A DNA stretch of 64,000 bases from an uncultured Magnetococcales bacterium (GCA_964344355.1 CAYFNE010000016.1:4344-68343); one strand, 5' to 3'. Shown: positions 10,079-60,631, counted from the first letter of the stretch. Numbers and translations: made by a program. The notes: generated from the sequence alone by a model not told the origin.

Positions 10079-11116
10079 ATGAGGAAAAACCTGATCGCTG
10101 TTTCCCTGCTGGCCCTGACCTTGACCTTTGCCGGGGCGGCCAGCGCCGGAGAGAGATCCCGTTCGCAAAACCCGTTCACCGAACAGGAGTTTTCCAAGTT
10201 TCTCGATGATTACTCCGGCGTCACCGCCTGGTTGGCCGAGCAGGGCCGGGGCCGTAATCTGGTGCACAATCCCTGGATCCTGACCGGCATGCGCTACAGT
10301 CCGAAACTGGCCGCGCATCTCAAGGAGAAGGGTTGGGAGGTCGATCGTTTTTTCTATCTGCTCGATCACATCAACATGGGCCTGTTGACCAGCCGCGCCG
10401 ATGAAAACCGCAAAAAGGCCGAGGCGCGCCGGGCCGAACGGGAAAAGGAGATGGAAGCGCGCCTTTCCGAGGGACGCAAACGGGCCCGGGAGGGTCACGG
10501 TCGGATGAATGAGGCGATGCGCAAACAGATGGCCGCCAGCAACGCCCGCTATCAAAAACAACTGGCCGAACAGCGCGCCCGCATTCAAAACGATCCCTAT
10601 ATGAGCCCCCAGCAAAAAAGCCAGATCCTGGCACAGATGACCCGCACCAACAAACAGATGTCGGCCGCCAACGAGGGTTCGGTCGGTCCGCAGGAGATGC
10701 GCGCCCGCATGGAAAAACAGCAACAGCAGTGGCTGGCGGCGCAACAACGCATGATCCGCAACAACCCCTACATGTCCCCCTACCAGAGACAGATGGCCCT
10801 GGCCGGCCTGCAGGCGCCCAAAATGCCCAAACCGCCCGCCAAACCGGACATGAGCGGCGAAAAAATGCGCGCCCGGGCCCTGAAGGAGCACCAACGGTTG
10901 ATGGCCGAACATCGCCAGCGCATCAGCAACAACCCCTATTTCACCCCCCAGCAGAAAAAACAGATGTTGGCGCAGTTGCAAGAGGTCACCGAACGCATGG
11001 AAAGCGACATGAAACGACCTGCCTCCAGCCAAGGCGGCCTGCTGCCCGACAACGAAATGGCCCTGATCAAGGAAAACCGCAAAAAGCTGCTGGGGATCTT
11101 TTTCCCGGAAAAATGA
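10079..11116 (+). CDS. Secreted Gln/Lys/Arg-rich protein with three NNPY(M/F)(S/T)PxQ(K/R) repeats
   Basis: 345-aa ORF with a signal peptide (AVSLLALTLTFAGAASA). It has three spaced repeats: RIQNDPYMSPQQKSQILAQM, MIRNNPYMSPYQRQMALAGL and RISNNPYFTPQQKKQMLAQL. Confidence 0.7.
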   Translation: MRKNLIAVSLLALTLTFAGAASAGERSRSQNPFTEQEFSKFLDDYSGVTAWLAEQGRGRNLVHNPWILTGMRYSPKLAAHLKEKGWEVDRFFYLLDHINMGLLTSRADENRKKAEARRAEREKEMEARLSEGRKRAREGHGRMNEAMRKQMAASNARYQKQLAEQRARIQNDPYMSPQQKSQILAQMTRTNKQMSAANEGSVGPQEMRARMEKQQQQWLAAQQRMIRNNPYMSPYQRQMALAGLQAPKMPKPPAKPDMSGEKMRARALKEHQRLMAEHRQRISNNPYFTPQQKKQMLAQLQEVTERMESDMKRPASSQGGLLPDNEMALIKENRKKLLGIFFPEK

Positions 11117-11297: not shown

Positions 11298-11520
11298 CGG
11301 GCAAAGCGAATGCCTTGTTGCGCAACAACCGCGCAACAAGGCATTCCGAGGCTCGCCGGTAAAAACGCCGGCGACTGTCTGATGCGCGTTTGCGCGCCTT
11401 TTGCTGAGAAACGCAAAAGGCGCTATTGTGAAAAACGCGCAAATTCAAAGTCAAAATCAAAGTCAAAAGCGTGGGCGCTGCCCACACCCGCCAGGAGGCC
11501 AACCCCGTGGACCCCAATTA
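11298..11520. repeat. Multi-hairpin intergenic repeat element, copy A
   Basis: Homologous in the same orientation to 56638-56874. Hairpins are at 11308-11346 (16-bp stem), 11353-11374 (7 bp) and 11394-11423 (11 bp). These are followed by a (TCAAAG/TCAAAA)x4 microsatellite and a conserved GTGGGCGCTGCCCACACCCGCCAGG..GGACCCCAATT tail. Confidence 0.8.
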
Positions 11521-11698: not shown

Positions 11699-12592
11699 TC
11701 AAGGACCGGCCACGAAGCCGGTTTTTATGAGGATTTCCCGGCCCTTGGGACTCATGATCCAGTCGAGATATTTTTTGACCATGCCTTTGGGGGCGCCCAG
11801 GGTATACATGTAGAGGGGCCGGGACATGGGATAGGAGTGGTCGAGGGTGAAGGCGGCGGTGGGGGGGACGCAGGGACCCTTGTCGATGCCGCCGCCGAAC
11901 AGACAGAGGGTTTTGACCCAGCCGGTGGCGAAGGCCATGCCCGTATAGCCGATGGCGCACGGTTCCCCGGCCACCCGGTCCACCACCTGCTCGGAGGCGT
12001 CCAGGGTCTCCATCTGGGAATGAAAACGACGCCGTTTGCCAAAAATGGCGTGTTGAAAAAAGGTGTAGGTTCCGGACTTGTTTTTGCGGCTGACGCGGAG
12101 AATTTTCTGGTCCTCGCAGCCGGGTACCGTCACTCCCAGGTCGGTCCAGCGGTCGATGTGGCCCTTTTTGCCATAGATCTCCGCCAATTGCCTTAAAGAG
12201 ACGCCGTGCAGGGGGTTGTTGCGATGCACCAGCATCGTCACCGCATCCAGTCCGACGACATGGGAGACCGGTTTCAGGCCGGACCGTTTGGCGATCAACC
12301 GGGCCTCGCGTTTTTTCAGCGAGCGGCTGGTATTGGCGATTTCGATGTGGCCGTTGATCAGGGCGGCGATGCCGTTGCCGGAGCCGCCGCCACCGACCTC
12401 CACCCGTACATCCGCCACCTCCTTCTGGAAAGCCCGCGCCCAGAGGGTGGCCACCCGTGCCAGGGTGTCGGAACCCTTGGTGCGGATCACCTTTTCCCGG
12501 GCCCGGGCGCTGCCGGCCCCCATGGTCGATCCCAGCAGCGGGATCAGGCAACACAGTAGGACAACGAAGAGAGAGTTGCGGTTCGATTTCAT
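11699..12592 (-). CDS. PstS-family (phosphate/oxyanion) periplasmic substrate-binding protein
   Basis: 297-aa ORF with a signal peptide. It shows type-2 PBP features typical of PstS-like proteins (IRTKGSDTL..., GGGGSGNGIAALINGHIEIANTSR). Its ATG overlaps the stop of the upstream ATPase (ATGA, 12589-12592). Confidence 0.75.
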   Translation of the reverse strand: MKSNRNSLFVVLLCCLIPLLGSTMGAGSARAREKVIRTKGSDTLARVATLWARAFQKEVADVRVEVGGGGSGNGIAALINGHIEIANTSRSLKKREARLIAKRSGLKPVSHVVGLDAVTMLVHRNNPLHGVSLRQLAEIYGKKGHIDRWTDLGVTVPGCEDQKILRVSRKNKSGTYTFFQHAIFGKRRRFHSQMETLDASEQVVDRVAGEPCAIGYTGMAFATGWVKTLCLFGGGIDKGPCVPPTAAFTLDHSYPMSRPLYMYTLGAPKGMVKKYLDWIMSPKGREILIKTGFVAGP

Positions 12593-14868
12593 GCGGTGGC
12601 CGTCGACAGGACATCCCCATCCGGATCACAGACCAGCAACCGGTCCGATTCGGTGACGATATCGGGTTCGTAATCCTGGGCGATGACCCAGACCTGGGTG
12701 ATGCGTTCACTGATTTCGAGCAGGGCATCCAACGAGGCCCGCACCCGCTGGGCGTCATAAAAGGCGAACGGTTCATCCAAAATGATGAATTGATGGAAGT
12801 CCGCCGAGCCGGGCACCCCCGCCGCCGAACGCGCCGCCAGGGCCTGCGCCAGGGCCATGCGCACCGCCAGGATCAACTGTTGCCGCAAACCGGTGGATAT
12901 TTCTTCCACATCGACGAAATCATTCTTGACCGTGGAAAAGGCCGACACCCGCAATTCGTCATCGATACGCAAATGTTGATAACGCCCGGCGGTGAACAAC
13001 GGCGCCGAACGGGAGATGAAACGGCGCAACTCCTGTTTGAAGCGGGAAGAGATGATGCGATGGGTACCCCGGAGCAGGTCCAGGGCCGTCTCCCGCACCG
13101 CCAGGGCGTGCCGTTCACCGTTGCGCTCCTTTTCCAGATCGGCGATCTGGGCGCGCAGGGTTTGATCCTCCTGCCGGCGTATGCGTTCGTGTTCCATCTC
13201 CCGGTCGAGATCGGCGACGGTGGTTTCATGGCGCCGGCGGTTTTCGGCGATCTCCGCGAGTTGGCTGTTGATATCGGAATCGATCTCGGCCATCTCCTCG
13301 AGGAACGCCGCCAGTTCGCTTTGCAACTCCTGCAGCCAGGCGCTCAATGCCGACTCCTCCAGCAATGGGCGGCCAACCCCCTCCGACCAGTTCCGCAACG
13401 ATTCCGCCCATTCGGCGCTTTCCAGGCGCGACAGTCCCGCCACCAGCTTGGGCAGGGGTTGGGCCAGGGCGGCGGTGATGATTTCCACCTGCCGTTGATC
13501 GCCGGCGGCCCGTTCCAGCAGGGCCGACAGCCGCCCTTCATGGCCGGCCAGTTCCCGTCCCAGTTTGACCGCGCCGACGATGCCGTAAACCAGCAGACCG
13601 AAAAACAGCAGGACCAAAAACAGCAGGCCATGGACCATGGCCGGATGCCAGAAGGAGAGCGTGTTATCCAGGGCCACCGCCAGCCCGCCATCGGGATTGA
13701 ACTGCACCAGTGCCCAGGGAATGACGCTGAAACAGAAAAAAAACAGGCTCAGACCGATCCACCAGCGGTTTTTCAGCCGCCGTTGATCGAGGAGATCGAT
13801 CTCCCGGTCGATGGCGGCCCGGGCGGCCGGCAGGGTATCGCCACCGGCGGCGGTGGCCGCCTCCGGATCGGCGGTTCCGGTCTCCGCCCCCAGCCACCGT
13901 TGCAAACGCCGCCGTTGGGCGGTGGCGGCATCGATGATGGTGGTGAGCGCCGTCAACCGCTGCTGAAAATCCCGCAACCAGGCCCGGGGGGCGTCGGAGG
14001 GATCCGACTCCATCTCCACCTCGTTGCGCTGGCAAACCTCCTTCACCCCTTCCAGGGCCTGCTCCAACTGCTCGCCGCGCACCTGCCAACCGTCGCGGTT
14101 GGTCTCCAGACCACTCTCCGACTGCCGGCTGACGGCCCGTTCGACATTTTTGCCGGTGGCCGACAGATCACGGGCGAAATGGCGCCACCGATCGCGGTTG
14201 GCATCACAATCGATGATCGCCTCGGCCGCGGCGTCCCGGCGCCCCTGCAGCTCCGGCAGGACGCTCTCCTCGACATCGAGGAGGGCCAGGCGGTCCAGGA
14301 GCTCTTCGGCCTTGGCCTCGGCGGCGGCGATGGTGCGCCTGGTGGAGACGATCTCCTCTTCCATCTCGGCGATCAGGGTCTCCACCGGCGTCACACCGGC
14401 CAGGGTTTTGATGGTATCGGCCTGGGTATCGCCGCCGCCCCGTCCCTGATTGAGATAGAGGGCGTCGACGAACGATTGAAAATCATAGCCGGTCACCGCC
14501 ATCACCGCCCGGTTGACGGCCTTTTCGCCCTTGACCAGCGGTTTCTGCTCCAACCCCCGGGTCAAGGCGGCCTGACGGCTGCCCTCGGTATCGAAAAACC
14601 GTTGCACGGTATAGACCCGACCGTCCCGGCCGGTGAACGCCATGACCACCGACGCCCGGGTCTCCCCCCAACGCACCGCCTTGGCCAGGCGATCCGCCTC
14701 CAGGGCGACGGTGCGTCCGAACAGCGCCAGACAGAGGGTTTCGACGATGGCGGTCTTGCCGGATTCGTTGGATCCACTGATGAGGATCCGCCCCCGTTCC
14801 GGCAGATCGGTCAGATCGAGGCGGGAATATTTGAAGGTGTTTTCGGCTTGCAGACGGCGAATGATCAT
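12589..14868 (-). CDS. SMC/Rad50/YhaN-like ATPase with two central transmembrane helices
   Basis: It has N-terminal Walker A (ISGSNESGKTAIVETL) and long coiled-coil-type regions. A central hydrophobic hairpin reads WWIGLSLFFFCFSVIPWALV - about 22-aa loop - MVHGLLFLVLLFFGLLVYGIVGAV. The C-terminus has a signature-like ISTGLRQQLILAVRMAL and Walker B FIILDEPFAFYD. Start chosen at MIIRRLQ (14868), which overlaps the upstream stop as ATGA; the track ORF extends to 14919. Confidence 0.8.
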   Translation of the reverse strand: MIIRRLQAENTFKYSRLDLTDLPERGRILISGSNESGKTAIVETLCLALFGRTVALEADRLAKAVRWGETRASVVMAFTGRDGRVYTVQRFFDTEGSRQAALTRGLEQKPLVKGEKAVNRAVMAVTGYDFQSFVDALYLNQGRGGGDTQADTIKTLAGVTPVETLIAEMEEEIVSTRRTIAAAEAKAEELLDRLALLDVEESVLPELQGRRDAAAEAIIDCDANRDRWRHFARDLSATGKNVERAVSRQSESGLETNRDGWQVRGEQLEQALEGVKEVCQRNEVEMESDPSDAPRAWLRDFQQRLTALTTIIDAATAQRRRLQRWLGAETGTADPEAATAAGGDTLPAARAAIDREIDLLDQRRLKNRWWIGLSLFFFCFSVIPWALVQFNPDGGLAVALDNTLSFWHPAMVHGLLFLVLLFFGLLVYGIVGAVKLGRELAGHEGRLSALLERAAGDQRQVEIITAALAQPLPKLVAGLSRLESAEWAESLRNWSEGVGRPLLEESALSAWLQELQSELAAFLEEMAEIDSDINSQLAEIAENRRRHETTVADLDREMEHERIRRQEDQTLRAQIADLEKERNGERHALAVRETALDLLRGTHRIISSRFKQELRRFISRSAPLFTAGRYQHLRIDDELRVSAFSTVKNDFVDVEEISTGLRQQLILAVRMALAQALAARSAAGVPGSADFHQFIILDEPFAFYDAQRVRASLDALLEISERITQVWVIAQDYEPDIVTESDRLLVCDPDGDVLSTATA

Positions 14869-15086
14869 GGACCGCCCTCTCGATTGATCTCCTCCAGGGT
14901 GGGAACGGTGTCCACCCACAGGCGCGAGAGCACCAGTTCGACCGCTTCCCGGTGAAGATCGCCATCGAAATCCGGGTTGGTCTCCCGTTGCCGTTCCATC
15001 TCCTCGCGGCTGTAGGCGGCGAACACCTCACGGGGATCTTCCACCTGAAACCCTTTGATCGTCTCCGGCTCGCTTCGGGTTTTCAT
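14865..15086 (-). CDS. Small acidic hypothetical protein, translationally coupled to the SMC-like ATPase
   Basis: The 73-aa version MKTRSEPETIKGFQVEDPREVF...TLEEINREGGP has a GGGGG RBS-like run upstream. Its stop TGA overlaps the ATPase ATG. No family was recognised. Confidence 0.45.
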   Translation of the reverse strand: MKTRSEPETIKGFQVEDPREVFAAYSREEMERQRETNPDFDGDLHREAVELVLSRLWVDTVPTLEEINREGGP

Positions 15087-15322: not shown

Positions 15323-15695
15323 TCGGCAAACCCCTTATACCATCCGAAACGTTGCCGGAGCAATCGGGACCGAGTCACCCCCGGCCCATTCAAACCCGAA
15401 AGCGTCCCCGATCGCCCGTGCCGGAGACCGGAATCGCCACCAGGCCGGCCAGGATCAACCCCTTCCGGGTCACGAAATCCGCCGCCAGGATGTCATCAAT
15501 CGTTTTATTCCGATCATCATCCCCTCCGGGGCGGCGGCCAACCGATTTGGCAACCACCCCGCCGGCCTTGGTGCATTGCATTGATATTTTTGTTAGACGC
15601 ACAAAAATCACCACACGCCGCCCATGACGGCGGGCATGGCAATTTTCACCGTGTATGTTAGCATGTGCCGATCGGGATGGCTCCAAAACCAAGTG

Positions 15696-16979
15696 ATGAA
15701 CATGGCCGGCAGAATTTCCGGGGAAGATAAAACATTCCTGAAATCCATCAGCCTCCTCTATGTCGAAGATGAAGAGACGGTCCGCGGGGAGCTGTCCGAA
15801 TTTTTACGCCGTATCATCGGAACCCTTCACACCGCCGCCGATGGCCGCACCGGTCTGGAGATGTATTCCCGGGAACGACCGGAGGTGGTGGTGACCGATA
15901 TTTTGATGCCCCACATGGACGGATTGACCATGGCGCAGGAGATGCGCAATCGGGATCCCGACGTCCCCATCATCATCACCACCGCCTTCAACGATGAGAG
16001 TTATTTCATCAAGTCCATCGAGGTGGGTGTCGATCACTATGTACAAAAACCGATTCTCCCCAACCTGCTGGTGGAAGCCATTCTCAAGGCGGGACGGCTG
16101 CTGCGGGAAAAACGGCGCGCCGCCGCCGCCAACCGTTTCAGCCGTTTCGTCCTCGACACCTATCCCAACTTTCTCCTGGTGACCAATCGTACCGGGGTCG
16201 AATACATCAACCGGCCGTTCCTGAAATTTCTCGGTTATCCCACCCTGGAAGCCTTCATGGAGAACGGGCCGCCGCTGACTTCGGTCATCGTCGACCTGCC
16301 GGAGGGGGATTGGGTCGGCCATCTGCTTGATTTGCGGGAACGGGTGCCCATCGTCCATCTCCGCAGCGGCGGCGCCGACGGTCCGGGCAAAACCCTTGCC
16401 CACGCCCTGACCGTTTCCACCATTTTGGACCTGGGAAAATATATTTTTTCCTTCGCCAACATCGTCCAGATCGAAAACCGTATCAAAAATCTGGAAGAGA
16501 TGGCCTTCACCGACCCCCTGACCGGCGCCTGCAACCGCGCCAAACTGGGGGGGTTCCTCGACGCCGAAATCAGCCGCGCCAAACGCCACGGGATCTCCCT
16601 CTCGATCATCCTCCTGGACCTGGACCATTTCAAAAAAATCAACGACACCCATGGACATCAGGTCGGAGATGACGTACTCACCGCCCTGTCGGTATTGATC
16701 GCCAACCATATCCGCGCCTCGGACCTGGTGGCCCGCTGGGGCGGGGAGGAGTTCATGCTGGTGCTGCCGGAAGTCGATCTGCCGGGAGCGGTGCAAGTGG
16801 CGGAAAAACTGCGTCTCCTGATCGAGAAAACCCCCTTTCCCGAGGCCGGGCACATCACCAGCAGTTTCGGCGTCGCCCAGTTTCTGGCCGACGACAGCAG
16901 CCGTTCCCTGACCGAACGGGCGGACCTGGCCCTCTATGCCGCCAAAAACAAGGGCCGCAACCGGGTGGTCAGCCGTTGA
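15696..16979 (+). CDS. Response regulator receiver + PAS-like + GGDEF diguanylate cyclase
   Basis: REC motifs are present (LLYVEDEE.., VVVTDILMPHMDG, TAF..KP). The C-terminal GGDEF domain has GGEEF and RxxD-type context. Start chosen at ATG 15696; the track starts at 15624. Confidence 0.85.
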   Translation: MNMAGRISGEDKTFLKSISLLYVEDEETVRGELSEFLRRIIGTLHTAADGRTGLEMYSRERPEVVVTDILMPHMDGLTMAQEMRNRDPDVPIIITTAFNDESYFIKSIEVGVDHYVQKPILPNLLVEAILKAGRLLREKRRAAAANRFSRFVLDTYPNFLLVTNRTGVEYINRPFLKFLGYPTLEAFMENGPPLTSVIVDLPEGDWVGHLLDLRERVPIVHLRSGGADGPGKTLAHALTVSTILDLGKYIFSFANIVQIENRIKNLEEMAFTDPLTGACNRAKLGGFLDAEISRAKRHGISLSIILLDLDHFKKINDTHGHQVGDDVLTALSVLIANHIRASDLVARWGGEEFMLVLPEVDLPGAVQVAEKLRLLIEKTPFPEAGHITSSFGVAQFLADDSSRSLTERADLALYAAKNKGRNRVVSR

Positions 16980-27800: not shown

Positions 27801-29132
27801 CTGCCCGGCCTGTTGCGGTCGATGATGCCGCTCTATCAAAAACTGGCGCAGAAAAAAAATATCTTCTGCCATCTCGACATGGCCCCCGACCTGCCCCGTT
27901 TCGTCCGCGGGGATCCAACGCGGCTGCAACAGATTCTGGTCAATCTGATCACCAATGGCATCAAGTTCACCAGCGATGGCGGTGTCACCCTGATCGTTAC
28001 CGGCGGTCCCCCGGAAACCGGTCGTGCCGGCCTCATCTTTCAGGTGCGGGACACCGGCATCGGTATTTTTCCGGGCAAACTGTCCAAACTGTTCAACGCC
28101 TTTTCCCAGGCGGACAGCTCCACCACCCGCAAATATGGCGGTACCGGTCTCGGGTTGGCCATTTCAAAACGGTTGGCCCGGTTGATGGGCGGGGATGTGA
28201 CCGTCAAAAGCACCCCGGGAAAGGGCAGTGCCTTCACCCTGCGGGTCACCCTGCCTTTGGCCGGTCGGGCGGAGACCGAAGTGATCCTCCGGGAAAACCG
28301 GGCGTTGTCGCGGGACCTCCCGAAAGCGGTACGGGTCCTGGTGGTGGAGGATGAATCGATCAACCGTTCGGTCATTCAGGCCATGTTGGTCAGCCTCGGT
28401 TTTTCGGCCGATATCGCCGTCAACGGCAGGGAGGCCCTGGAGCGGTTGCATCGGAACCGTTACGACCTGGTGCTGATGGATTGTCAGATGCCGGAGATGG
28501 ACGGATTCGATACCACCCGGAATCTTCGCGCCCGGGAACAGGGATTGGACGGCCACCGTCACACCCCGGTGGTGGCCCTGACCGCTTATGCCATGAAGGG
28601 AGACCGGGAAAAATGTCTGGCCGCCGGGATGGATGATTATCTGGCCAAACCGGTGCGCAAGCGGGCATTGCGGGCGCTGCTCTCCCGTTGGCTCGGTGAA
28701 ACGGGCAATGGAAAGGGTGGGCCGGGCTCCGGTTCGTCTCCCCCGGAACCGCAGCAACCCCGGGGGCCGGCCCCACCACCCGAGGAAGAGATCCTGGACA
28801 AACGGGTATTGGCCGATCTGCAGGAGGAGATGGGGGATGCCTTCGTGTTGATCGTGGAAAAATTTCTTGAAAGCCTGCCGCACCATTTGGCCCGCATCGA
28901 GGAGTCCCTGGCCCGGGAAAGCCCCGTGAGTGTGGCCGAGACCTGCCACAAGCTGAAAGGCACCTCCAGTCAACTCGGCGCCAAACGGCTCGCCGACCGG
29001 ACCAAGGCGTTGGAGCAAATGGGACGTGCCGCGAACATGACCGGGGCCGTGAGCGAATTTTCCGGGTTGCGGCAAGAGGTGCAACGGACGGAACAGGCCT
29101 TTCGGCGGCTGCTCTCTTCCACGGATCCGTAA
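24873..29132 (+). CDS. Large hybrid sensor histidine kinase (GAF, multiple PAS, GAF, PAS, HisKA, HATPase_c, REC, HPt)
   Basis: It has the H-box [21 protein letters not shown] boxes ([24 protein letters not shown]), REC ([27 protein letters not shown]) and HPt ([16 protein letters not shown]). ATG 24873 with a GGGAGGGA RBS was chosen over the track start at 24690. Confidence 0.9.
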
Positions 29133-29185
29133 CCACCGCCCGTTCCGTCTGACCGTTTTTTTCAACAGGGTCATCCTGTTTGGGC

Positions 29186-29213
29186 TTTGACATTAGAAAA
29201 ATACATATTATAA
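29186..29213 (+). promoter_or_regulatory. Near-consensus sigma-70 promoter (TTGACA-16 nt-TATAAT)
   Basis: TTGACA at 29186-29191, a 16-nt spacer and TATAAT at 29208-29213, about 150 nt upstream of ATG 29363. Such matches arise more easily by chance in AT-rich DNA. Confidence 0.4.
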
Positions 29214-29362
29214 TTTCTGTTCATTTTAGTTTATTTTCACAAAAGTGATTGTCAGGATTTTCCTTTAACATCAAAGATTCAAGTATCGACAACACATGAA
29301 ATTCAATGTGATCGTGTCAACAAAAATGTCAATCAAAAGGGATCATTTTTGGGGCGAAAATC

Positions 29363-31243
29363 ATGACAAGCATATTCAATGCGGAACTTCCAGATTACGA
29401 GAAAGTGAAAGAGATCGTCAACAAAAAGAATTTTGAAAGAAAAGTGGTGGAGGCTCTTGAGAGTATAGAAAATGATATTATCGTCGCCCGAGACAAAGGC
29501 GTCGACAGAAAGGGGCAGGATCCATATTTTCCGCCTGTCTATCTCACTAAAAGGCGGGTCAAATCCCAGTACAGCGCCTTTCTGAAAACCAAAAGAAAAA
29601 TGCGTAAAGATCTGAATTTTATCAGAGATTATGCAGGCATCCGAATTCTTGTATTGTTTGATGACGATCTGATCGAGATCTTTAGATTCATGCTTACCGA
29701 TGTCATCGATCCCGGTTTGCTGGAAGAGGTTACTCTTTTCAATCTGCCAGAGCATCTTGTTAAAAACATAAAATCCGACTCTTCGCTCAAAAAACACTTG
29801 GAAAAGGGTTTTAAGTTGGAGGAAAAACATGATCATTTTAGAGTTATCGATCGACAGTCTGGCTACCAATCAATTCATTTCGTGTTCCGACAGACCATAA
29901 AACAAACAAATAACTTCTACGAAGGTGAAAAGTCAATTTATGGGACGGTCTCCAGCGATGATTTCTTCATAGAAGCACAGGTTCGCACGCTGTTACAAGA
30001 CGTTTGGTCAGAAATGGAGCATAAACTGGCCTATAAACAGGGCAAGGCAAATCCTCATATTTCTACGAGCTTCAAGTTATTGCAAGAGGATATCTCTACC
30101 ATGGGGCGGAGACTCACCAATATCCAATCCATGAGAAACAGCCATTTGTCACTGGATCATCTGGCCATTCGCGAATCTCGTCCGTACTCATATTTTCAAT
30201 ATGAAAAAGACTGGGAGCCAATGGTTTTTTTGCGGGAAAAGCTTGACGATGATTGCATAAATGAGGCAAAAAGATATGAAGATCTTACAAAAAAATATCA
30301 GGATGGAGAAATCAATCCTGGTTATTTTTGCGAAAAGGCAATGGACTCCGTAGACAAGCTCTTTAAATGTTTCAAGAAGTATATTGAAAATGCCGATCAG
30401 GACAGTGATGATAAAGTTCGTTATTGGTATTTGATGGAAAAAGGTTTCATTGAGTTTCTTGCCAAAAACTACGGAAAAGCGCGCGAATCGTACGAAAAAA
30501 TTTTGAATGATAAAACGTTTGATGGACAGCCTGTGCCGCTCTTTCGGCGAACAGAACTGAATTTCGTTGCGGAAGAAGGTTTGGATGAAAAAGATCTCAT
30601 TCCCTGTCTGGAAGGGTTCGATAAGGTAATTGAACGCATCAAAATCTTGCATGACTCCGGGGGCATGTCCGATGTTGCCAGGGAAAATGGTGCTGCCATA
30701 CTGACCAAAATTGCCGCCATCTACGAGTTGATGGGAGCGGAGGAATATCTGGATTTTTGCATCAGTCTACTGGAGGAGGCGGTTGAACTCCTCTCTGGGA
30801 GAAAAGGGAAAAAGGGTCGAAAAAACAAACTGCTATTTGCCAGAAACAATTTGGGGTGGGTGTATCTCGAAAAGTTCAGGACTTGTAAGAAAAACGAGAA
30901 GCGAGGATGGCACGAAAAATGCGTCAATGAAGTGAGGCCGCTTTATAAAGAGGTCAAGAAGGCCTTTCAGGAGGATCCGGAGCAGTTTACAAGCAATGTG
31001 TACGATACTTTGTCCTGGTTTTTTTACCAGTCGCATGTCTTCCTGAATGATCCGGCATACGGAAAGACCGTCATTTCCTCGCCGATGCTCCGGCCACCCG
31101 GCAAAAAGGACCTGTTGACCACGGCCCAACTTTTTTGCGGCTTGGTCTGGCGGGTGAAAAACAGAAGCTCCTTCCTGGTCAGCAGCGTCAGCCGCCAGAG
31201 GAGTCGAGCTGAACTCATCATGAATCCGAATGTCAAAAGGTGA
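29363..31243 (+). CDS. RelA/SpoT-family (small alarmone synthetase-like) nucleotide pyrophosphokinase domain fused to a ~400-aa helical/TPR-like C-terminal region
   Basis: 626-aa ORF. All synthetase-fold motifs are present in order: R65-V-K..S71...K75, D89xxG92xR94 (IRDYAGIRILV), G167-YQSIH172, and E204-AQVRTLLQDVWSEMEHKLAYK225. There is no HD hydrolase domain. The C-terminal two-thirds is helical-repeat-like (e.g. YWYLMEKGFIEFLAKNYGKARESYEKIL). Confidence 0.8.
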   Translation: MTSIFNAELPDYEKVKEIVNKKNFERKVVEALESIENDIIVARDKGVDRKGQDPYFPPVYLTKRRVKSQYSAFLKTKRKMRKDLNFIRDYAGIRILVLFDDDLIEIFRFMLTDVIDPGLLEEVTLFNLPEHLVKNIKSDSSLKKHLEKGFKLEEKHDHFRVIDRQSGYQSIHFVFRQTIKQTNNFYEGEKSIYGTVSSDDFFIEAQVRTLLQDVWSEMEHKLAYKQGKANPHISTSFKLLQEDISTMGRRLTNIQSMRNSHLSLDHLAIRESRPYSYFQYEKDWEPMVFLREKLDDDCINEAKRYEDLTKKYQDGEINPGYFCEKAMDSVDKLFKCFKKYIENADQDSDDKVRYWYLMEKGFIEFLAKNYGKARESYEKILNDKTFDGQPVPLFRRTELNFVAEEGLDEKDLIPCLEGFDKVIERIKILHDSGGMSDVARENGAAILTKIAAIYELMGAEEYLDFCISLLEEAVELLSGRKGKKGRKNKLLFARNNLGWVYLEKFRTCKKNEKRGWHEKCVNEVRPLYKEVKKAFQEDPEQFTSNVYDTLSWFFYQSHVFLNDPAYGKTVISSPMLRPPGKKDLLTTAQLFCGLVWRVKNRSSFLVSSVSRQRSRAELIMNPNVKR

Positions 31244-31929
31244 AGGAGGTTACGTTATTTTTTTACCGGTTTTCAAGAAGGTTTTCTGTTGACACTCTAC
31301 CACCGTTCGTTCAGCATTCGAGATCCGTCCCTGTAGGGATAAGTGGTTCAAGCCATGCACGGGGCGGTATCCGGAGAGAGTTGAGAAAAGGAGGGTTTCA
31401 TGCGTGATATTATGGGTTTGTGAATTATCGCTCTGTCGTGTGGAAGCATCTGCCTTGAATATGGAACGGTGCCGGGAAAGGAACGGAGTCACTACCGACA
31501 GAGCGGAACGGTCCTTTCCCGGGCAAGGCCTCTCTCCTGACCATGCAGCGGATGCTGTTCAGGGCGTTCTCAGGTGAGCGGGGGGTTCCGGCACCGTTCG
31601 GGCGTCCTGCCGGAACGAACGGTCGGAACAACCGATCATCTTCCGGTTCGGTCGCCCGTGTGCTGATATCAATTCAGGGCGAAACTGTCCCCAGACTGCC
31701 CCCGCGCCGCTGTTTTTCCAGATACCATCTGACCTTTTTCCAATGAATCATGAATCGGTTCCAAAGTTTTCGCACTGTCAGCATTTTTGACAGGTGGCGG
31801 TTTTTTTGGCACCGGAAACCGTGCTGACTCGCTTTCCAATGACGTGAGCATGTGGGCGAGGAAATTCCGGAGGGATCTGTAAGGTCCCGGCTTTGATCGC
31901 GAAGTATGACGATCCATAATAGTGCGGCG

Positions 31930-32547
31930 TCACTTCTGCAAATGTTCAGCCATTTCCCCAAACCTCACTCCCGCATACCCCCCCGCCCCCAGGCGGGCCA
32001 ACGGGTCCAGGCCGCCGGCGTCGACGGTCAAACGGTTGCCGCCGTCCAGGGTGGCGATGGCATCGTCCAGATATACCCGTTTCACCTCGCCCAGGATCAG
32101 GGTTTGGGGCCGGTTGCCCACCTCCAAAATCCGGTGTCGCACACAGGCCATCGCCGCCCGGCAGGCACTCAGGCGCGGCAGGGGGAAATCGTCGAAGGGG
32201 ACCGTCTCCAGACCGAGTTTTTCCACCTCCGATACCTCTGCGGGCAGGGATTCGGCGCTGGCCTCCACCGGCTGCCGTTGTTGTACATGGGGAATGTGGA
32301 CGACGAAATGGTCCCGGGCGGCGATGTTGGCACGGGTGTCCTTGGGGGAGCCGTCGGCCTTGTCACCGATTGAAAGCATGATGATCGGCGGATCGCTGCA
32401 GACCCCGGTGAAAAAGGAGAACGGCGCCAGGTTCAAACCGCCATCGCCGTTTTCGCTCAATACCCAGGCGATGGGCCGGGGGATCAATACCTGGGTCAGG
32501 GTGTGGTAAACCCGCTTCGGACTCAGGGTGGTCAGATCGATTTCCAT
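31930..32547 (-). CDS. Flavin reductase-like (FMN-binding split-barrel) protein
   Basis: 205-aa ORF. YHTLTQVLIPRPIAWVLSENGDGGLNLAPFSFFTGVCSDPPIIMLSI is typical of the flavin reductase domain family. Confidence 0.8.
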   Translation of the reverse strand: MEIDLTTLSPKRVYHTLTQVLIPRPIAWVLSENGDGGLNLAPFSFFTGVCSDPPIIMLSIGDKADGSPKDTRANIAARDHFVVHIPHVQQRQPVEASAESLPAEVSEVEKLGLETVPFDDFPLPRLSACRAAMACVRHRILEVGNRPQTLILGEVKRVYLDDAIATLDGGNRLTVDAGGLDPLARLGAGGYAGVRFGEMAEHLQK

Positions 32548-32577: not shown

Positions 32578-35500
32578 TCATGCGTCGAACAGGGTCACCC
32601 GCTCCACCACCAGGCTGCCCTGTTTCACCACCCCTTCGACGTGCCAGGGTCCCCGATGTTTCAATCCCGGTCCCAGGTGCCGGATCACGGCGGGGAACAA
32701 AATGGTCTCGATGAGACCGGTACGGTCGGAAAGGGTCAGAAAGGCCATCGGTTCGCCCTTTTTCGTCAACATCGATTTGCGCGCCACCGGCAGGCCGACG
32801 CCGCCACCGCGTTGCCCTTCTCGCAGCCGCGCCAGACGGCGCGCCGGCAGCACCCGGTTTTGCAATGGCAGCAGGGTGTGCCGGTAGAGCCGCAACGGAT
32901 GATCGGCGAGCGCCAATCCCAGGGCGGTCATCTCGCGCCGGATCCGGGCCTCCACACTTTCCGGGGGCGGCGCCACAGGTTCTTCCCGTTCCGCATCCGC
33001 ATCATCGAACAGCGCCAACTCCGGTTGCCGATTGTGCCCGTTATGATGAAAATTTTCCACCGTCCACAGCCGTTGCCGCCGTTCGGCGGCGTTGACCGGT
33101 CCGCACAGTTCGTCCGTGGCCCCCGACAGCACCAACATCGCCGCCACCTCCCGATCCGGGACCAGACGCCGCAATAGATCCGGCCAATCGGCGAACGGGC
33201 GGCGGTCGATCAACGTCGCCACCGTTTTTTCGTTCAGGTTGGCCACCCACTGCAAACCCATGCGGATGGTGCGGTCGTCCAAGGCTTCGGTGTGCCAGCT
33301 CCCGGCCACCACGCAGGGGGGGACGAGGCGGATACCGAGCCAGCGGGCGGCGTCCACATAGACCTGCGGATGATAATAGCCCCCCTGGTTGCTCAATACC
33401 GCCGCGAAAAAGATCGCCGGATGGTGGCTGCGCAACCAGGCCATCTGATAGCTGAGACGGGCGAAACTGGCCGAGTGTGCCTTGCAAAAGGCATAACCGG
33501 CGAAGGAGACGATCTGTTTCCACAACGCCTCGGCCCGTTGTTCCGCCATGCCACCGGCCAGGGCGCCGTCGAAAAAACGGTCCCGATAGAGGTTGAGATC
33601 CTCGTGGTGGCGTTTTTTGCCCATGGCGCGGCGCAACAAATCGGCCTCGCCGAGGCTCATGCCGGCGACCGTCGCCACGGTCTGGATGACCTGCTCCTGA
33701 TAGACCAGAATGCCATGGGTCTCTTCGAGAAATGGCCGCAGGCGGGGATCGGGATAGTGGGCGGGCTCCTCACCGCGGTGACGGCGGATGAAGGCATCCA
33801 TGAGTCCGCCCTGATTGACGCCGGGCCGGATGATCGAGCTGGCGGCGACCAGGGTTTCATAATCCCGGCAGGCCAACCGTTTGAGCACGCCGCGCATGGA
33901 GGGGGATTCGATGTAGAAGCAACCCAGGGTCTCCCCCCGGGCGATCAATGCGTTGGTGGCGGCGTCGGCCATGGCCGCTTCCGGGCACAGCCCGCCTTCT
34001 GGATCGGTTTCGTCCCGCCGGTTCAGCACCGTCAGGGCGTCGGCCAGGGCGCCCATGGAACGGTTGCCGAGGAGGTCGATCTTGATCAATCCCAGGTCTT
34101 CCGCCGGTCCCATGGAACCGTCGGTGGCCGGCCAGTCCGACGGCGATGGCACCACCGGCATCACATCGCGCACCGGCACCCCGGCGACGGCGATGCCACA
34201 GGGGTGGATGCCGAAATGGCGTGGCAGACCGGCCAGTTGTCGGGCCACCGGCCACATGCCGCGCCAGGGCGGTTGGTCCAGGGGGATGCCACGATAGACC
34301 GGATGGTTCGAGACCAGGGCCTCCTCCAGATGGCGCAGGGAGCCCCAGGGCAGTTTTTTGGCGAATGAATCGATGGTTGCCGGCGGTATGCCGAGGGCAT
34401 GGCCGATCTCCCGGAACAGTCCCCGGGTCTTGAAGGTTTGAAAGGCGCCGACCAGGGCGACGTTTTCGGCGCCGAACCGTTCCAGGATGAAACGCAACAT
34501 CTCCTCGCGCCGATCCCAGGGCAGATCGAGATCGATATCCGGTGGATCGAGCCGTTCCGGATTGAGAAACCGTTCAAAAAACAGATTGTGCCGCACCGGA
34601 TCGACATGGGTGATGCCCAGGGCGTAGGCGACGGTGGAGTTGGCCGCCGAACCGCGCCCCAACACCGGCATGCCGCGCCGCACCGCTTCACGGACGATTT
34701 CGTCGACCACCAGGAAATAACCGGCGTAACCCATGCGGTTGATGACCGCCAACTCCCGCTGGCAGCGCCGCAGGGCCTCCATGGGGATGGCCGGATGATA
34801 ACGGCGCGCCAATCCGGCCATGGTGCGGTCGGTGAGCAGGGTTTCCGGCGGATCGGCGCCGGGAAACGGTGGAAACAGCGGCCGGCCCAGGGTCGGGGTG
34901 AAATCGCACCGTTCGGCGATGCGCCGGCCGTTGGCCAGCGCTCCCGGCAGATGCCGGAAACGATCGGCCAGGGTGGTATCCGCCAGGATGGCGCCGGCCG
35001 CGGCGCCGTCATCGTCGGTCAAACGGTGTACCGTCGTTGCCCGGGCCAACGCCCGCAACACCCGGTGGGCGGTCAAGCCGGCGCTGGAAACCGCCACCGC
35101 GTCGGTGGCGGCCAGCAACGGCACCCGGTGTTGACGGGCCATCTCCAACAGCAGATCGTTGTTTTTGCGCAAAAGGGGGGAGCTGTCCGGCAGCCGTGGC
35201 CGGATGCGCGCATGGAGCCGTTGTTCGCCGCGGCGCCAGGCGGGTATCTGCAACGTCCTGGCCAACCACAAGGCCGAGCCCGGCAGGGCCATCAACGATT
35301 CCGCCGCCGCGGTCACCGCCCGCCAACCGGCCTGCCGGTCCCCCCGCCGCCAGTCGGAGACCGCCCGGCAGAGCGCCGGCCAGCCATGGCCGTCGGCCAC
35401 CAACAGCACCAGCCCGGGATCCCGCTCCCCCAGGGTGAGGGTGACGCCGACGATGGGGTGAATCCCGGCGCCGGCGGCCGCCTGCACGAAGGGGACGATG

Positions 35501-35631
35501 CCGGCCAGGGTTTCGCGGTCGGTCAGGGCCAGGGCCGGCAATCGTTGTTCGCGGGCGGCCTCCACCCACCGTTCGGGCGTATCGACCCCCTCCAACAGGG
35601 AAAAGGCGCTGCGCACCGACAGGGGAATCAT
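32578..35631 (-). CDS. dnaE2: Error-prone DNA polymerase III alpha-like subunit DnaE2 (ImuC)
   Basis: 1017-aa ORF with an N-terminal PHP domain (SAFSLLEGV..), a Pol IIIalpha core and a C-terminal OB region. Its start overlaps the imuB stop by 4 nt. Confidence 0.9.
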   Translation of the reverse strand: MIPLSVRSAFSLLEGVDTPERWVEAAREQRLPALALTDRETLAGIVPFVQAAAGAGIHPIVGVTLTLGERDPGLVLLVADGHGWPALCRAVSDWRRGDRQAGWRAVTAAAESLMALPGSALWLARTLQIPAWRRGEQRLHARIRPRLPDSSPLLRKNNDLLLEMARQHRVPLLAATDAVAVSSAGLTAHRVLRALARATTVHRLTDDDGAAAGAILADTTLADRFRHLPGALANGRRIAERCDFTPTLGRPLFPPFPGADPPETLLTDRTMAGLARRYHPAIPMEALRRCQRELAVINRMGYAGYFLVVDEIVREAVRRGMPVLGRGSAANSTVAYALGITHVDPVRHNLFFERFLNPERLDPPDIDLDLPWDRREEMLRFILERFGAENVALVGAFQTFKTRGLFREIGHALGIPPATIDSFAKKLPWGSLRHLEEALVSNHPVYRGIPLDQPPWRGMWPVARQLAGLPRHFGIHPCGIAVAGVPVRDVMPVVPSPSDWPATDGSMGPAEDLGLIKIDLLGNRSMGALADALTVLNRRDETDPEGGLCPEAAMADAATNALIARGETLGCFYIESPSMRGVLKRLACRDYETLVAASSIIRPGVNQGGLMDAFIRRHRGEEPAHYPDPRLRPFLEETHGILVYQEQVIQTVATVAGMSLGEADLLRRAMGKKRHHEDLNLYRDRFFDGALAGGMAEQRAEALWKQIVSFAGYAFCKAHSASFARLSYQMAWLRSHHPAIFFAAVLSNQGGYYHPQVYVDAARWLGIRLVPPCVVAGSWHTEALDDRTIRMGLQWVANLNEKTVATLIDRRPFADWPDLLRRLVPDREVAAMLVLSGATDELCGPVNAAERRQRLWTVENFHHNGHNRQPELALFDDADAEREEPVAPPPESVEARIRREMTALGLALADHPLRLYRHTLLPLQNRVLPARRLARLREGQRGGGVGLPVARKSMLTKKGEPMAFLTLSDRTGLIETILFPAVIRHLGPGLKHRGPWHVEGVVKQGSLVVERVTLFDA

Positions 35632-36779
35632 GGCGGAGGACCGATGCGGACCGCCTCGGCGCCGAAACGGCCGCGGATGGCATCCAGGGTTTCATCCAGT
35701 CCCCGGCGCAACAGGGGGGAGGACCGTTCCAACGGTGCGAACAGGTTTTCATCGCGATAACGGCGGGTTTCGGTCACGGTCAGGGTGAGGCGCCGGATCA
35801 ACACCCGCCGGCTGCGCAATCGGTGCAATCCGTCCCAGACCGATGCCAGCAGGCCCATGGTGCGGTCTTCCGGTGGATCCAGAATGATTTTTCGGCGGTG
35901 GCGGGGTCCATCCCACTCTTCCAGTTCCAACGTGACGACGGCGATGAACACCCGCTCCCGTCGTGCCGCCAGTCCCAGATGATTGCAGGCCTCGACCAGC
36001 AGGGCACGCAACGGGGGATCCTTTTGACGGTGGATGCCGGGGTGAAGGGTGATGGTGGTCGGTTCGGCCACGGTCGCCGTCGGTTGGATCGGCGTCGTAT
36101 CGTGGCCCAGTCCCCAGGCCCGCCACAGGCGCGCCCGTTTACCGAAGGCGCGTACCAGACGTTCCTCCGGACAGCGCACCAGATGACCGACCGAGGTCAA
36201 ACCCAGACGGTGCAACCGTTTGGCCAGGGCCGTCCCCACCCCCGGCAACACCGTCACCGGCAACGGCGCCAAAAACCGTTGCTCCTGGCCGGGAAAAATA
36301 CGCAACAGACGCATGTGCGCCCGTCGGGCGGCGGTCTCCGCCATGCGCGCCATGGCCGGATTGCCGCCGATACCGCTCAGGGGGGTCACTTTCAAATCAT
36401 TTTCCAGGTCCCGCAACACCCGGTCCCAGGTGACGGTCTCCGCCGCCCGATGGACGCCCCGGGTGCCGGACAGTTCCACCAACCACTGTCCGGCGTCTCT
36501 CTCCGCCACCAGGGGCGTGGCATCCAACAACCGTTCGGCGACCACCCGGCGGATGCGCGCCTCCCATTCGGGCCGTCGCGGCCGGATGATCAGGGCCGGA
36601 TGCAACCGGTCCACCGCCAACCCCGGATGCGCCCCCAATCGCCTGGCGGCCCGGTTCAGATCGACCACCCGCCCCTGCTGAACCACCACCAACGGCGCTT
36701 CATCGGCCACGGCCCCGGCCCGCCGCACCGCCGCCAACGGCAAATGCGGCAACCGCAACGCCGCCACCGTCCGGTTCAT
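35628..36779 (-). CDS. imuB: ImuB, Y-family-polymerase-like mutagenesis protein
   Basis: The protein from MNRTVAALRLPHLPLAAVRR.. has a typical ImuB N-terminus and Y-family fold without clear catalytic acidic residues. Start chosen at ATG 36779; the track start at 36917 adds an implausible hydrophobic extension. Confidence 0.8.
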   Translation of the reverse strand: MNRTVAALRLPHLPLAAVRRAGAVADEAPLVVVQQGRVVDLNRAARRLGAHPGLAVDRLHPALIIRPRRPEWEARIRRVVAERLLDATPLVAERDAGQWLVELSGTRGVHRAAETVTWDRVLRDLENDLKVTPLSGIGGNPAMARMAETAARRAHMRLLRIFPGQEQRFLAPLPVTVLPGVGTALAKRLHRLGLTSVGHLVRCPEERLVRAFGKRARLWRAWGLGHDTTPIQPTATVAEPTTITLHPGIHRQKDPPLRALLVEACNHLGLAARRERVFIAVVTLELEEWDGPRHRRKIILDPPEDRTMGLLASVWDGLHRLRSRRVLIRRLTLTVTETRRYRDENLFAPLERSSPLLRRGLDETLDAIRGRFGAEAVRIGPPP

Positions 36780-36876
36780 GACCAGCCTCGGCGGCCAATG
36801 GCGGACGATGGTTGAAAAAACGGCTCCGGATGGATCGGTTCGGATGATGGGGATGACACGGTCGTTCTCTCCATGG

Positions 36877-36906
36877 TGTTCATTATCAAAAAGAACAAAA
36901 TAGAAC
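36877..36906. promoter_or_regulatory. Candidate SOS/LexA-type operator upstream of imuB
   Basis: TGTTCATTATCAAAAAGAACA is a TGTTC-N11-GAACA dyad. It overlaps the direct repeat AGAACAAAAT/AGAACAAGAA (GAAC-N6-GAAC). This resembles known GAAC/GTTC-type LexA boxes but does not match them exactly. Confidence 0.25.
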
Positions 36907-37269
36907 AAGAAAGTCAATGGCCAATTGGGGATTGATCAACCATTCCGGCGGGGACCCAACCCCGCTCTAACATAGGCATTTGTTTTTTTGGATAAAACTG
37001 GAAACTCCGGACCCTCCCTGCTGTGGTTCATGGTTTCATCCGGCCATCAGGATCATTTTTCACCAAAACAAATGGTCAAGATGGATGATCGGCCCCCGAC
37101 GGCGACCAACGACCAAACTTGGGAACATGCCCCGTTTACGGGTTGGAATTCCCAACGATCTGCATGTATGATGTCCCGCGGTGGGCAGGGGACCATTTTC
37201 CCGTCATAATCCGCCCACGCGGCAATCTATCCGACACAGACAGCGTTGCATCGAGCGAGGAGGACGGGC

Positions 37270-37860
37270 GTGGCCATTTCTTTGTCAAAAGGACAACGGG
37301 TTTCCCTGGAGAAGGAGACCGGCAAAAAGCTGGACCGGATCATCATGGGGTTGGGCTGGGATGTCCGGCAAAAGGAAAAAAAGGGCTTTTTCGGTTTTCT
37401 CTCCGGCGGTGGCGGCAGCATCGATCTGGATGCCTCGGTGGGCCTGTTCGACGCCGGCGGCGGCCTGGTCGATCAGGTGTGGTTCCGGCAGTTGCAGAGC
37501 CGGGACGGATCGGTGCGGCATACCGGGGACAATGTGACCGGAGAAGGGGAAGGGGATGATGAACAGATCCTGGTCTCCCTCAGCCAGGTCCCGGCCAATG
37601 TACAGGCGATGGTGTTCGTCGTCAGTTCCTACTCCAGCGACACCTTCGATGAAATCGACAACGCCTACTGCCGTATGGTGGATGCCAGCGACAACACGGA
37701 AATCCTGCGTTACGCCCTCTCCGGCCAGGGCAGTCATACCGCGCAGATCATGGTCAGCGTCTACCGCAAGAATGGTGGCTGGTCGGTCCGTGCCATCGGT
37801 GAAAAATCCCAGGGGCGCACCATCCAGGATCTGACCGCGCAGATGAGCCGGAACATTTGA
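37270..37860 (+). CDS. TerD-family stress protein
   Basis: It has (V)AISLSKGQRVSLEK..MGLGWD.. and the [15 protein letters not shown] calcium-binding motif. A GTG start at 37270 follows a GAGGAGGA RBS; the track starts at TTG 37246. Confidence 0.85.
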   Translation: MAISLSKGQRVSLEKETGKKLDRIIMGLGWDVRQKEKKGFFGFLSGGGGSIDLDASVGLFDAGGGLVDQVWFRQLQSRDGSVRHTGDNVTGEGEGDDEQILVSLSQVPANVQAMVFVVSSYSSDTFDEIDNAYCRMVDASDNTEILRYALSGQGSHTAQIMVSVYRKNGGWSVRAIGEKSQGRTIQDLTAQMSRNI

Positions 37861-37929
37861 TCACCAGCCCCGTTATCGGCGCACTTCCATTCAACGAGCC
37901 ATACAACCCACTCGTCAAGGAGCACGTTC

Positions 37930-38508
37930 ATGTCCGTATCTCTCTCAAAAGGCGGTAATGTTTCCCTGTCCAAAGAGGCCCCCGGCATCAAGGCCATTTT
38001 GCTCGGTCTCGGCTGGGACGCCCGGGCCACCGATGGTCAGGATTTCGACCTGGACGCCGTGGCCTTCATCCTGAACGCCAACGGCAAGGTTCGTTCCGAC
38101 TCCGATTTCATCTTTTACAACAACAAGGTCGGTGCCAACGGCGCCGTACAGCACCAGGGCGACAACCGCACCGGTGAAGGGGAAGGCGATGATGAGCAGG
38201 TGATGATGAACCTGGAAGGGTTTCCCACCGATGCCGAAAAGGTGGTCCTGGCGGTCACCATTCATGAAGGGGATACCCGCGGTCAAAATTTCGGCCAGGT
38301 CAACAATGCCTTCATCCGCGTCGTCAACGCCGATGGCAACAAGGAGATCGCCCGTTATGATCTCAGCGAGGACGCCTCCACCGAAACGGCGATGATTTTC
38401 GGCGAGGTCTACCGGCGCAACAACGAGTGGAAATTTCGCGCCGTCGGCCAGGGTTTCGCCGGAGGACTCGGACCGCTGGCGCGCAATTTTGGCGTTGACG
38501 TCGGTTAA
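37930..38508 (+). CDS. terD: TerD-family stress protein
   Basis: [59 protein letters not shown] is canonical TerD sequence. Confidence 0.9.
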
Positions 38509-60560: not shown

Positions 60561-60631
60561 GGATGAATTTTCCGTGTTTTACGCGGGCAATGCAAAAAAA
60601 AAGCGGTGGCGGTTCAACCGAAACGTGAACT

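Follow-up and report, generated by a model that had tools for sequence, protein, structure and literature searches.

What does an ATPase of the SMC/Rad50 type do when the tip of its coiled coil appears to be buried in a membrane, and why would a gene for a phosphate-binding protein follow it? A three-gene operon raises this question at positions 11,699-15,086, minus strand, of a 64,000-nucleotide (nt) stretch of DNA from an uncultured Magnetococcales bacterium (GCA_964344355.1, CAYFNE010000016.1:4344-68343), the whole of which was analysed and is called the window here. The usual picture of such ATPases is of DNA machines that are soluble and carry a hinge or a zinc hook at the end of their arms. 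We propose, with a probability of roughly 0.55, that the first two genes encode an ATP-gated, membrane-tethered Rad50-like clamp and its small subunit, distant kin of YhaN/SbcE, and that in one lineage the pair is co-expressed in a phosphate-linked manner. The two-gene module (small protein plus ATPase) is uncharacterised and conserved across many Gram-negative phyla. The genes, in their order on the minus strand, and the possible end of the operon are as follows (aa, amino acids):

14865..15086, minus strand: small-subunit gene, 73 aa from the ATG at 15086
12589..14868, minus strand: gene for a Rad50/SbcC-like ABC ATPase of 759 aa, predicted to be membrane-anchored (AAA_23, E = 6e-10; Rad50 profile and fold matches)
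11699..12592, minus strand: gene for a predicted periplasmic phosphate-binding protein of the PstS family, 297 aa (PF12849, TIGR02136, 4pqj/4omb)
11467..11489, minus strand: terminator-like hairpin, a possible operon end about 210 nt past the PstS-like stop codon (from a consensus scan only)

The three genes are joined by ATGA start/stop overlaps at 14865-14868 and 12589-12592, which are read directly from the sequence; the open reading frames (ORFs) and both overlaps are confirmed as a preliminary description of this DNA had given them. The upstream flank is a divergent response-regulator/GGDEF gene (15624-16979) and the downstream flank, beyond the hairpin, is a convergent plus-strand gene (10079-11116). 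The operon is self-contained. The true start of the ATPase is the ATG at 14868, giving the 759-aa form and not the 776-aa form with a GTG start, because M1 and I2 are invariant in all homologues. Candidate starts of the small ORF lie at 15086 (73 aa), 15098 (77 aa, the choice of the public annotation, P0015) and 15113 (TTG), and the choice among them is immaterial because the conserved core begins near aa 13.

The ATPase head is recognized by motifs at both ends of the protein:

14752..14775, minus strand: Walker A, GSNESGKT, aa 32-39, with G32, E35, G37 and K38 invariant in 78 sequences
12877..12897, minus strand: ABC signature, STGLRQQ, aa 658-664, aligning with SGGEQ of Rad50
12754..12789, minus strand: Walker B, FIILDEP, aa 694-700, and D-loop, FAFYD, aa 701-705, with D698, E699 and D705 (the D-loop Asp) invariant
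12676..12678, minus strand: H-loop position, occupied by Gln (Q731) and not by the catalytic switch His, from a hidden Markov model (HMM) alignment with Rad50

S658 and Q664 are likewise invariant in the 78 family members, at least 90% of which also share G660 and the Q-loop residue Q141. The motifs match those of M. jannaschii Rad50 residue for residue, with family-profile pairings of GpNESGKt with GENGSGKS, YLaQ with YIKQ, SsGtqrQ with SGGEQ, iLDEP with ILDEP, and FAFFD with TVYLD. In the same HMM alignment the family segment viaQ pairs with IITH of Rad50, and therefore the H-loop histidine is replaced by glutamine Q731, which is kept in at least 90% of the 78 sequences. The YhaN-like protein P0012 retains the H-loop His. 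In ABC ATPases, loss of this His usually slows hydrolysis and leaves ATP-driven dimerisation intact. The ABC/SMC-type head motifs of the preliminary description are therefore intact and conserved when aligned to Rad50; the His-to-Gln change of the H-loop is a point that it had missed.

Profile and structure comparisons point to the same relatives. The profile of the 78 members matches M. jannaschii Rad50 with E = 3.5e-45 and also matches SbcC. Among Pfam families only AAA_23 was found, and the NCBIfam matches to Rad50/SbcC are N-terminal and far under their cutoffs (best 59.8 vs 1087 bits; sbcc 30.7 vs 478.5), as they are for other members. An AlphaFold2 (AF2) model built from the 78-sequence alignment has a mean predicted local distance difference test (pLDDT) score of 89. 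In it, aa 1-160 and aa 630-759 form a split head, the N-terminal arm is segmented (helices 160-197, 203-250, 258-281 and 292-326), and a 122-residue helix spans aa 505-626. Against the PDB, Foldseek ranked C. thermophilum Rad50 first (7zr1, E = 1e-16, TM-score 0.40-0.43), with Smc5/6, M. jannaschii Rad50, Lamassu LmuB, SbcC and MukB at lower ranks.

Between the two arms, where Rad50 carries its zinc hook and SMC its hinge, the ATPase has a predicted transmembrane hairpin (KD, Kyte-Doolittle hydropathy, as maxima over 19-mers):

13699..13764, minus strand: transmembrane helix 1, aa 369-390, KD maximum 2.05, preceded by DQRRLKNR
13630..13698, minus strand: predicted periplasmic loop, aa 391-413, with a short helix at aa 395-403, no Lys or Arg and two Asp
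13567..13629, minus strand: transmembrane helix 2, aa 414-434, KD maximum 2.73, followed by the basic stretch KLGRELAGHEGR

The two helices are the sole strongly hydrophobic stretches of the ATPase and are separated by a 23-aa loop. In the AF2 model, helix 346-390 leads into the first of them, and helix 411-468 opens with the second. Taking KD >= 1.4 as the threshold for each of two central 19-mers, we found such a pair in 152/158 family members, and across the family the cytoplasmic flanks hold 0.263 Lys plus Arg per residue vs 0.048 in the loop. The central hydrophobic pair is not a product of chance. The loop is placed in the periplasm because both halves of the head must be cytoplasmic. 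Hydropathy, positive-inside flanks, the breadth of the family and the AF2 model all agree with the earlier proposal that two hydrophobic helices at the midpoint put the apex of the coiled coil in the membrane. A companion proposal, that the PstS-like protein contacts the periplasmic loop, finds nothing in its favour in the loop sequences. Loop length ranges from 2 to 52 aa across the family and is near zero in some clades, and the hairpin is therefore primarily an anchor. The loops of the PstS-linked proteins hold no insertion or motif restricted to the PstS-linked clade; a P-x-W motif recurs in the loop, and it is present too in gammaproteobacterial proteins without PstS linkage.

The other half of the module is the small protein. 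A search profile built from nine upstream ORFs identified a homologue directly upstream of the ATPase gene in 85 of 90 loci, representing at least six phyla; in most of them the two genes overlap by 4 nt. Of the five exceptions, L015, L073 and L077 are truncated at contig ends; the other two, L059 and L063, are complete, and the homologue was not found in them. The protein database holds 73 members of the small-protein family, all free-standing, 57-77 aa long, never fused to another domain and never annotated, and none of the Pfam, NCBIfam or PADLOC families matches the small protein. AF2 predicts a helix at aa 18-36, a loop of sequence NPDFD and a second helix at aa 42-60, with a core pLDDT of 95, and F22, E29, A48, L51 and V52 are invariant. 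Pairwise divergence of the small protein tracks that of the ATPase (r = 0.83). Neither a sequence profile search nor Foldseek gave a significant match in the PDB. A helix-loop-helix of such size is reminiscent of the Rad50-binding domain of Mre11. We considered the possibility, raised in the preliminary description, that the 73-aa ORF is a remnant of a lost partner gene, and rejected it on the grounds that conservation is too wide and the predicted fold too good. The small protein is instead the most constant partner of the ATPase.

For the ATPase family, a word-indexed search returned only 12 proteins, and an exhaustive profile search gave 473 clusters at 50% identity (E <= 1e-30). A scan of species-level genomes contained 377 relatives. 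Carriers include Magnetococcales, Binatia, Phycisphaerae/Planctomycetota, Desulfobulbaceae, Verrucomicrobia and others, as well as many Gammaproteobacteria (Chromatiales, Sedimenticolaceae, Ectothiorhodospiraceae and Ca. Thiodiazotropha). In Pfam and NCBIfam checks on members, no curated model named the family, and full-text literature searches recovered no paper describing it; the only relevant one concerns SbcE. The family is chromosomal and not mobile: plasmids gave no match, and viral sequences gave one weak match at 25% identity. Two size forms exist, a long one of about 750 aa and a short one of 600-650 aa (P0154-P0232). The short form keeps the hairpin at about aa 250-330 and is missing about 110 residues of the N-terminal arm (profile positions ~240-350), so that its two arms are unequal in length.

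Neighbouring genes point to no further constant component. All-against-all clustering of neighbour ORFs from 84 loci found no neighbour conserved across phyla beyond the small ORF, and only within-clade synteny was observed, mainly in Binatia, where it is stable (21 loci). Downstream genes in other phyla are heterogeneous and of housekeeping type (acyl-CoA dehydrogenase, diaminopimelate decarboxylase, RsmE, HrpB, patatin and glycosyltransferase). No adjacent nuclease was found in this locus or in any homologous locus examined, and no Metallophos-type gene occurs in the annotated neighbourhoods; the lack of a nuclease partner reported earlier for the window thus extends to the homologous loci.

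Judged from its sequence, the product of the third gene is truly a phosphate-binding protein of the periplasm and belongs to the PstS family. The ORF matches PF12849 (E = 1e-36, 127 bits vs a threshold of 27) and the phosphate-binding proteins 4pqj/4omb of the PDB (E = 3e-31) with ligand motifs aligned. It has an N-terminal signal-type hydrophobic segment and a predicted signal peptide at about aa 1-31 (12500-12592), and the ligand motifs are GSDT, GGGSG, TSR and RKNKSGT, whose ligand residues are conserved in 116-123 of 123 relatives. The earlier assignment of this gene to a signal-peptide-bearing PstS-family binding protein therefore holds. Four cysteines (Cys 159, 212, 230 and 241) are essentially invariant in the 123 relatives; we rejected them as the mark of a specialised PstS, as they are invariant throughout the subfamily, including members encoded in canonical operons. 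One such relative is the sister-clade protein P0347, about 50% identical, which sits in a phoB-phoR-pstS-phoU-pstC-pstA-pstB-pstB-porin operon. The TIGR02136 score of the window protein is 193.8 bits, just under the cutoff of 206.6; all six tested members of the Magnetococcales clade score 181-201 bits, and four members of the sister clade score 215-245. The Magnetococcales clade is thus slightly diverged from canonical PstS.

The preliminary description regarded the pairing of this gene with the ATPase as a possible functional link, and that pairing proved to be real within one order and absent beyond it. The triad of small protein, ATPase and PstS-like protein is found in 11 Magnetococcales genomes, comprising the window and ten further distinct loci (L001, L003, L006, L007, L011, L012, L013, L019, L091 and L092). 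The ATPase and PstS-like genes are spaced by -4 to about +60 nt, and what flanks the triad varies from genome to genome. Pairwise identities are 28-62% for the ATPases and 34-74% for the PstS-like proteins, and the two sets correlate (r = 0.84, Mantel p ~2e-4), which indicates co-inheritance from a common ancestor. Outside Magnetococcales (~75 loci), no PstS-like gene lies within 5 kb of the ATPase. Within the order, neither ATPase copy of Magnetococcales nCLbin6 (L014 and L015) is followed by one, and P0242, a Magnetococcales member of the same PstS clade, is not beside an ATPase gene and stands in another context. No pstC, pstA or pstB gene was found in this operon or in the other Magnetococcales loci examined. 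Beyond the PstS-like gene of L001 lie PHO4, PhoU_div and an OmpR-type regulator, which hints at regulation linked to phosphate. The PstS-like gene is a lineage-specific add-on to the two-gene core.

Several side observations concern the Magnetococcales loci themselves. The two copies in nCLbin6 are paralogous, lie on two contigs and are 34-35% identical to the window ATPase. A conserved block precedes the triad in L007 (651-3443), L091 (693-3438), L092 (1151-3393) and L001 (340-1425); it is made up of genes for a DUF2782 protein, for an MFS permease and for a protein of 361-397 aa with weak ATP-grasp likeness, and the window lacks it. In L091 (7642-9617, minus strand), genes for an AAA_21/SMC_N-type ATPase (423 aa) and an unannotated 232-aa partner, which may be a defence-type pair, lie immediately downstream of the triad.

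How might the module work? In our preferred reading, a long antiparallel coiled coil would be anchored in the inner membrane by a transmembrane hairpin (N-in/C-in) at its tip, which would leave the head suspended in the cytoplasm by a stalk of an estimated 25-30 nm. The small protein (~65 aa) would be an obligate helix-loop-helix subunit that binds the head or the head-proximal coiled coil, in the manner of a kleisin end or of the Rad50-binding domain of Mre11. Two protomers would pair via their membrane hairpins, and ATP would bring their heads together, as it does in Rad50. Replacement of the H-loop His by Gln throughout the family is predicted to slow hydrolysis, and the engaged state would therefore be long-lived, which would suit a clamp or switch rather than a motor. 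By analogy with Rad50/SbcC and with the role of the distant relative YhaN/SbcE in DNA repair and competence, the cargo would most probably be DNA, held or sensed at the membrane and left uncut. The third gene probably joined the operon in the ancestor of the Magnetococcales carriers and was co-inherited since; the most likely reason for its presence is phosphate-linked co-expression of the module, and it would not be an essential mechanical part.

A number of observations weigh against this reading. Hydrolysis in this family could proceed normally in spite of the H-loop Gln, and DNA binding by the head is suggested by homology only. The small protein has no detectable sequence or fold likeness to the Rad50-binding domain of Mre11 or to kleisins. 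The unequal arms of the short-form ATPases misfit a simple symmetric coiled coil. As to co-expression, a search of the 350 nt ahead of the small ORF in each of the 11 PstS-linked loci found no Pho box of the E. coli type (CTGTCAT-N4-CTGTCAT, allowing up to 3-4 mismatches), a test of little power since the canonical pst control locus L093 itself matched only weakly, and the 8-mers shared upstream of these loci are only generic GC-rich words. The PstS-like gene is also coupled through ATGA, here and in L012, more tightly than would be expected for a mere passenger.

That last point bears on two other ways to understand the third gene. Direct gating through the loop by the PstS-like protein is possible but unsupported. 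In its full form, the protein, loaded with phosphate or another oxyanion, would dock on the periplasmic loop as a receptor-like input, and external phosphate status in Magnetococcales would be sent through the hairpin and the 25-30 nm coiled coil to a head acting on DNA or another polyanion. Such a relay would be consistent with the coupling or close spacing of the two genes in 11 genomes whose ATPases have drifted to 28-62% identity, with the co-divergence of these genes, with the divergence of the Magnetococcales PstS clade in its TIGR02136 scores, and with the short helix and recurring P-x-W motif of the loop. We nevertheless consider it unlikely, as the module persists without a binding protein in the ~75 loci of other phyla and in nCLbin6, the loop carries no clade-specific insertion or motif and almost vanishes in some clades, P-x-W recurs in unlinked gammaproteobacterial proteins, and P0242 belongs to the same PstS clade without adjoining an ATPase gene. 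The co-divergence of ATPase and PstS-like gene is also what shared vertical descent alone predicts. At the other extreme, the gene could be functionally unrelated to the module, an orphan that supplies phosphate-binding protein to a PstCAB transporter encoded elsewhere, so that its adjacency is only inherited synteny. The ligand residues and four cysteines shared with 123 relatives, canonical-operon members included, fit this, as do the orphan P0242, the restriction of the pairing to one order and the unspecialised loop. We think it doubtful, although a serious possibility, because the adjacency persists while both flanks change between genomes, and because the genes are always on the same strand with overlaps or very short gaps that point to one transcript, with translational coupling in two loci. 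Phosphate-linked co-expression accounts for the third gene in our preferred reading.

The two-gene core has likewise been weighed against other functions. A role in anti-phage or anti-plasmid defence, with the ATPase as an SMC-like sensor of the Lamassu, Wadjet or PARIS type, would account for the matches to the PADLOC LmuB and mad3 models (E ~4e-15) and for LmuB structures among the fold matches. These PADLOC matches, however, are generic head matches, and Rad50 models score better; no nuclease, Sir2 or protease effector and no kleisin-like LmuC adjoins the module in any locus; and its context is stable, of housekeeping type, conserved within clades and single-copy, unlike a variable island, with the family absent from plasmids and essentially absent from viral contigs. 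We regard a defence function as very unlikely. A further alternative is that the ATPase serves as a membrane tether or organiser and not as a DNA protein, so that ATP-driven engagement of heads from separate membranes or membrane regions would bridge these or scaffold intracellular membranes and inclusions. Carriers appear, from the titles of their records, to be enriched in lineages known for internal membranes or inclusions (Magnetococcales, Chromatiales/Ectothiorhodospiraceae and Planctomycetota), and a long stalk with a slow-hydrolysis H-loop variant would fit a tether. This evidence is purely circumstantial, however, and Binatia and several other carriers have no such known structures; the head is homologous to DNA-binding ATPases, and SbcE, the closest relative to have been characterised, has its role in DNA repair and in transformation (PMC2811018). 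We judge the bridging role quite unlikely and retain the DNA clamp.

SbcE is an SMC/SbcC-like ATPase whose two heptad arms are split by a hydrophobic, insoluble central domain without a CxxC hook, and it has a role in double-strand-break repair and transformation (PMC2811018). The family resemblance suggested earlier is borne out: the YhaN-type protein P0012 (AAA_27, COG4717; such proteins occur in Bacillus subtilis and other Firmicutes) is the nearest outgroup of the window ATPase. Its C-terminal head matches with an hhalign probability of 99.8 at 29% identity, a P-x-L-T-x-G-R-Y motif is common to both, and it has a hydrophobic pair at aa 425-477 comparable to the central pair of the window ATPase. 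The differences are in size (759 aa vs ~960-1020, with arms of ~200 aa vs ~300), in the partner (a 65-aa helix-loop-helix protein instead of a neighbouring YhaO/SbcF phosphoesterase), in the H-loop (Gln vs His) and in distribution, as the window family is found in Gram-negative phyla. AAA_27 scores 14.1 bits on the window ATPase (gathering threshold 22) and 23.0 on the short-form P0229, so the family sits at the edge of AAA_27. We file the ATPase in an unnamed family of Gram-negative bacteria that is sister to YhaN and is set apart by its small subunit.

Rad50 and SbcC provide the best sequence and fold matches of the window ATPase, which shares with them the Walker A, Q-loop, signature, Walker B and D-loop motifs and a split head with a long antiparallel coiled coil. 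It differs in having a transmembrane hairpin and no CxxC zinc hook at the apex, no Mre11/SbcD gene in the locus, and Gln in the H-loop. The ATPase would thus work like a Rad50/SbcC-type clamp and is built like YhaN/SbcE, but it falls outside both by hook, nuclease, H-loop and model scores. LmuB of Lamassu is also a short-armed Rad50-like ATPase with small partners, and its PADLOC model (E = 3.5e-15) and fold both match; the window locus, by contrast, has no LmuA effector or LmuC, its neighbours give no PADLOC match, the ATPase has a membrane anchor, and the family occurs in a conserved housekeeping context with no plasmid or phage residence. The third protein resembles PstS of the TIGR02136 type in its PF12849 fold, signal peptide, GSDT, GGGSG, SR and RxxxSGT motifs, and identity of ~50% to a canonical-operon PstS. 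It differs in that its gene has no adjacent pstCAB and, judging from the gene arrangement, would be co-transcribed with the ATPase module.

The significance of these findings is that in a large and phylogenetically broad family of Rad50-like ATPases the apex is a predicted membrane anchor, no nuclease is associated, the switch His is substituted, and the sole constant partner is a 65-aa protein. The two-gene core offers a tractable system for the study of a clamp of this kind and may clarify the poorly understood YhaN/SbcE of Firmicutes. The co-inherited link to a phosphate-binding protein provides an experimental handle, namely phosphate limitation; one preprint contains the report that such bacteria store intracellular phosphorus as polyphosphate (bioRxiv 10.64898/2025.12.17.695019). 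Were the head gated by the PstS-like protein after all, it would represent a binding-protein-gated SMC-like machine, with a signalling or transport logic undescribed for SMC/Rad50 relatives, and in a wider sense the core pair of genes would establish membrane-tethered SMC-like complexes as a new class in Gram-negative bacteria.

Other features of the window were noted. The convergent gene downstream of the operon (10079-11116, plus strand) encodes a 345-aa protein with a signal-type N-terminus and no Pfam family match, and its translation contains three copies of R-I/M-x-N-N/D-P-Y-M/F-S/T-P-x-Q-K/R. The region 28000-32000 has a low GC content (0.48-0.52 vs ~0.60 for the window) and may have been horizontally acquired; within it, an ORF at 29363-31243 (plus strand, 626 aa) matches only the RelA_SpoT nucleotidyltransferase domain. 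At 32578-36917 (minus strand), an imuB-like gene (IMS family, 429 aa) and a dnaE2-like gene (DNA_pol3_alpha, 1017 aa) overlap at stop and start, the arrangement of an error-prone polymerase mutagenesis cassette. Tandem TerD-domain genes of 204 and 192 aa follow at 37246-38508 (plus strand). Finally, the region 58698-63963 holds a minus-strand gene for a 621-aa Ser/Thr protein kinase whose C-terminal part carries WD40 repeats, next to a plus-strand gene for an 857-aa AAA_22/AAA_16 ATPase.

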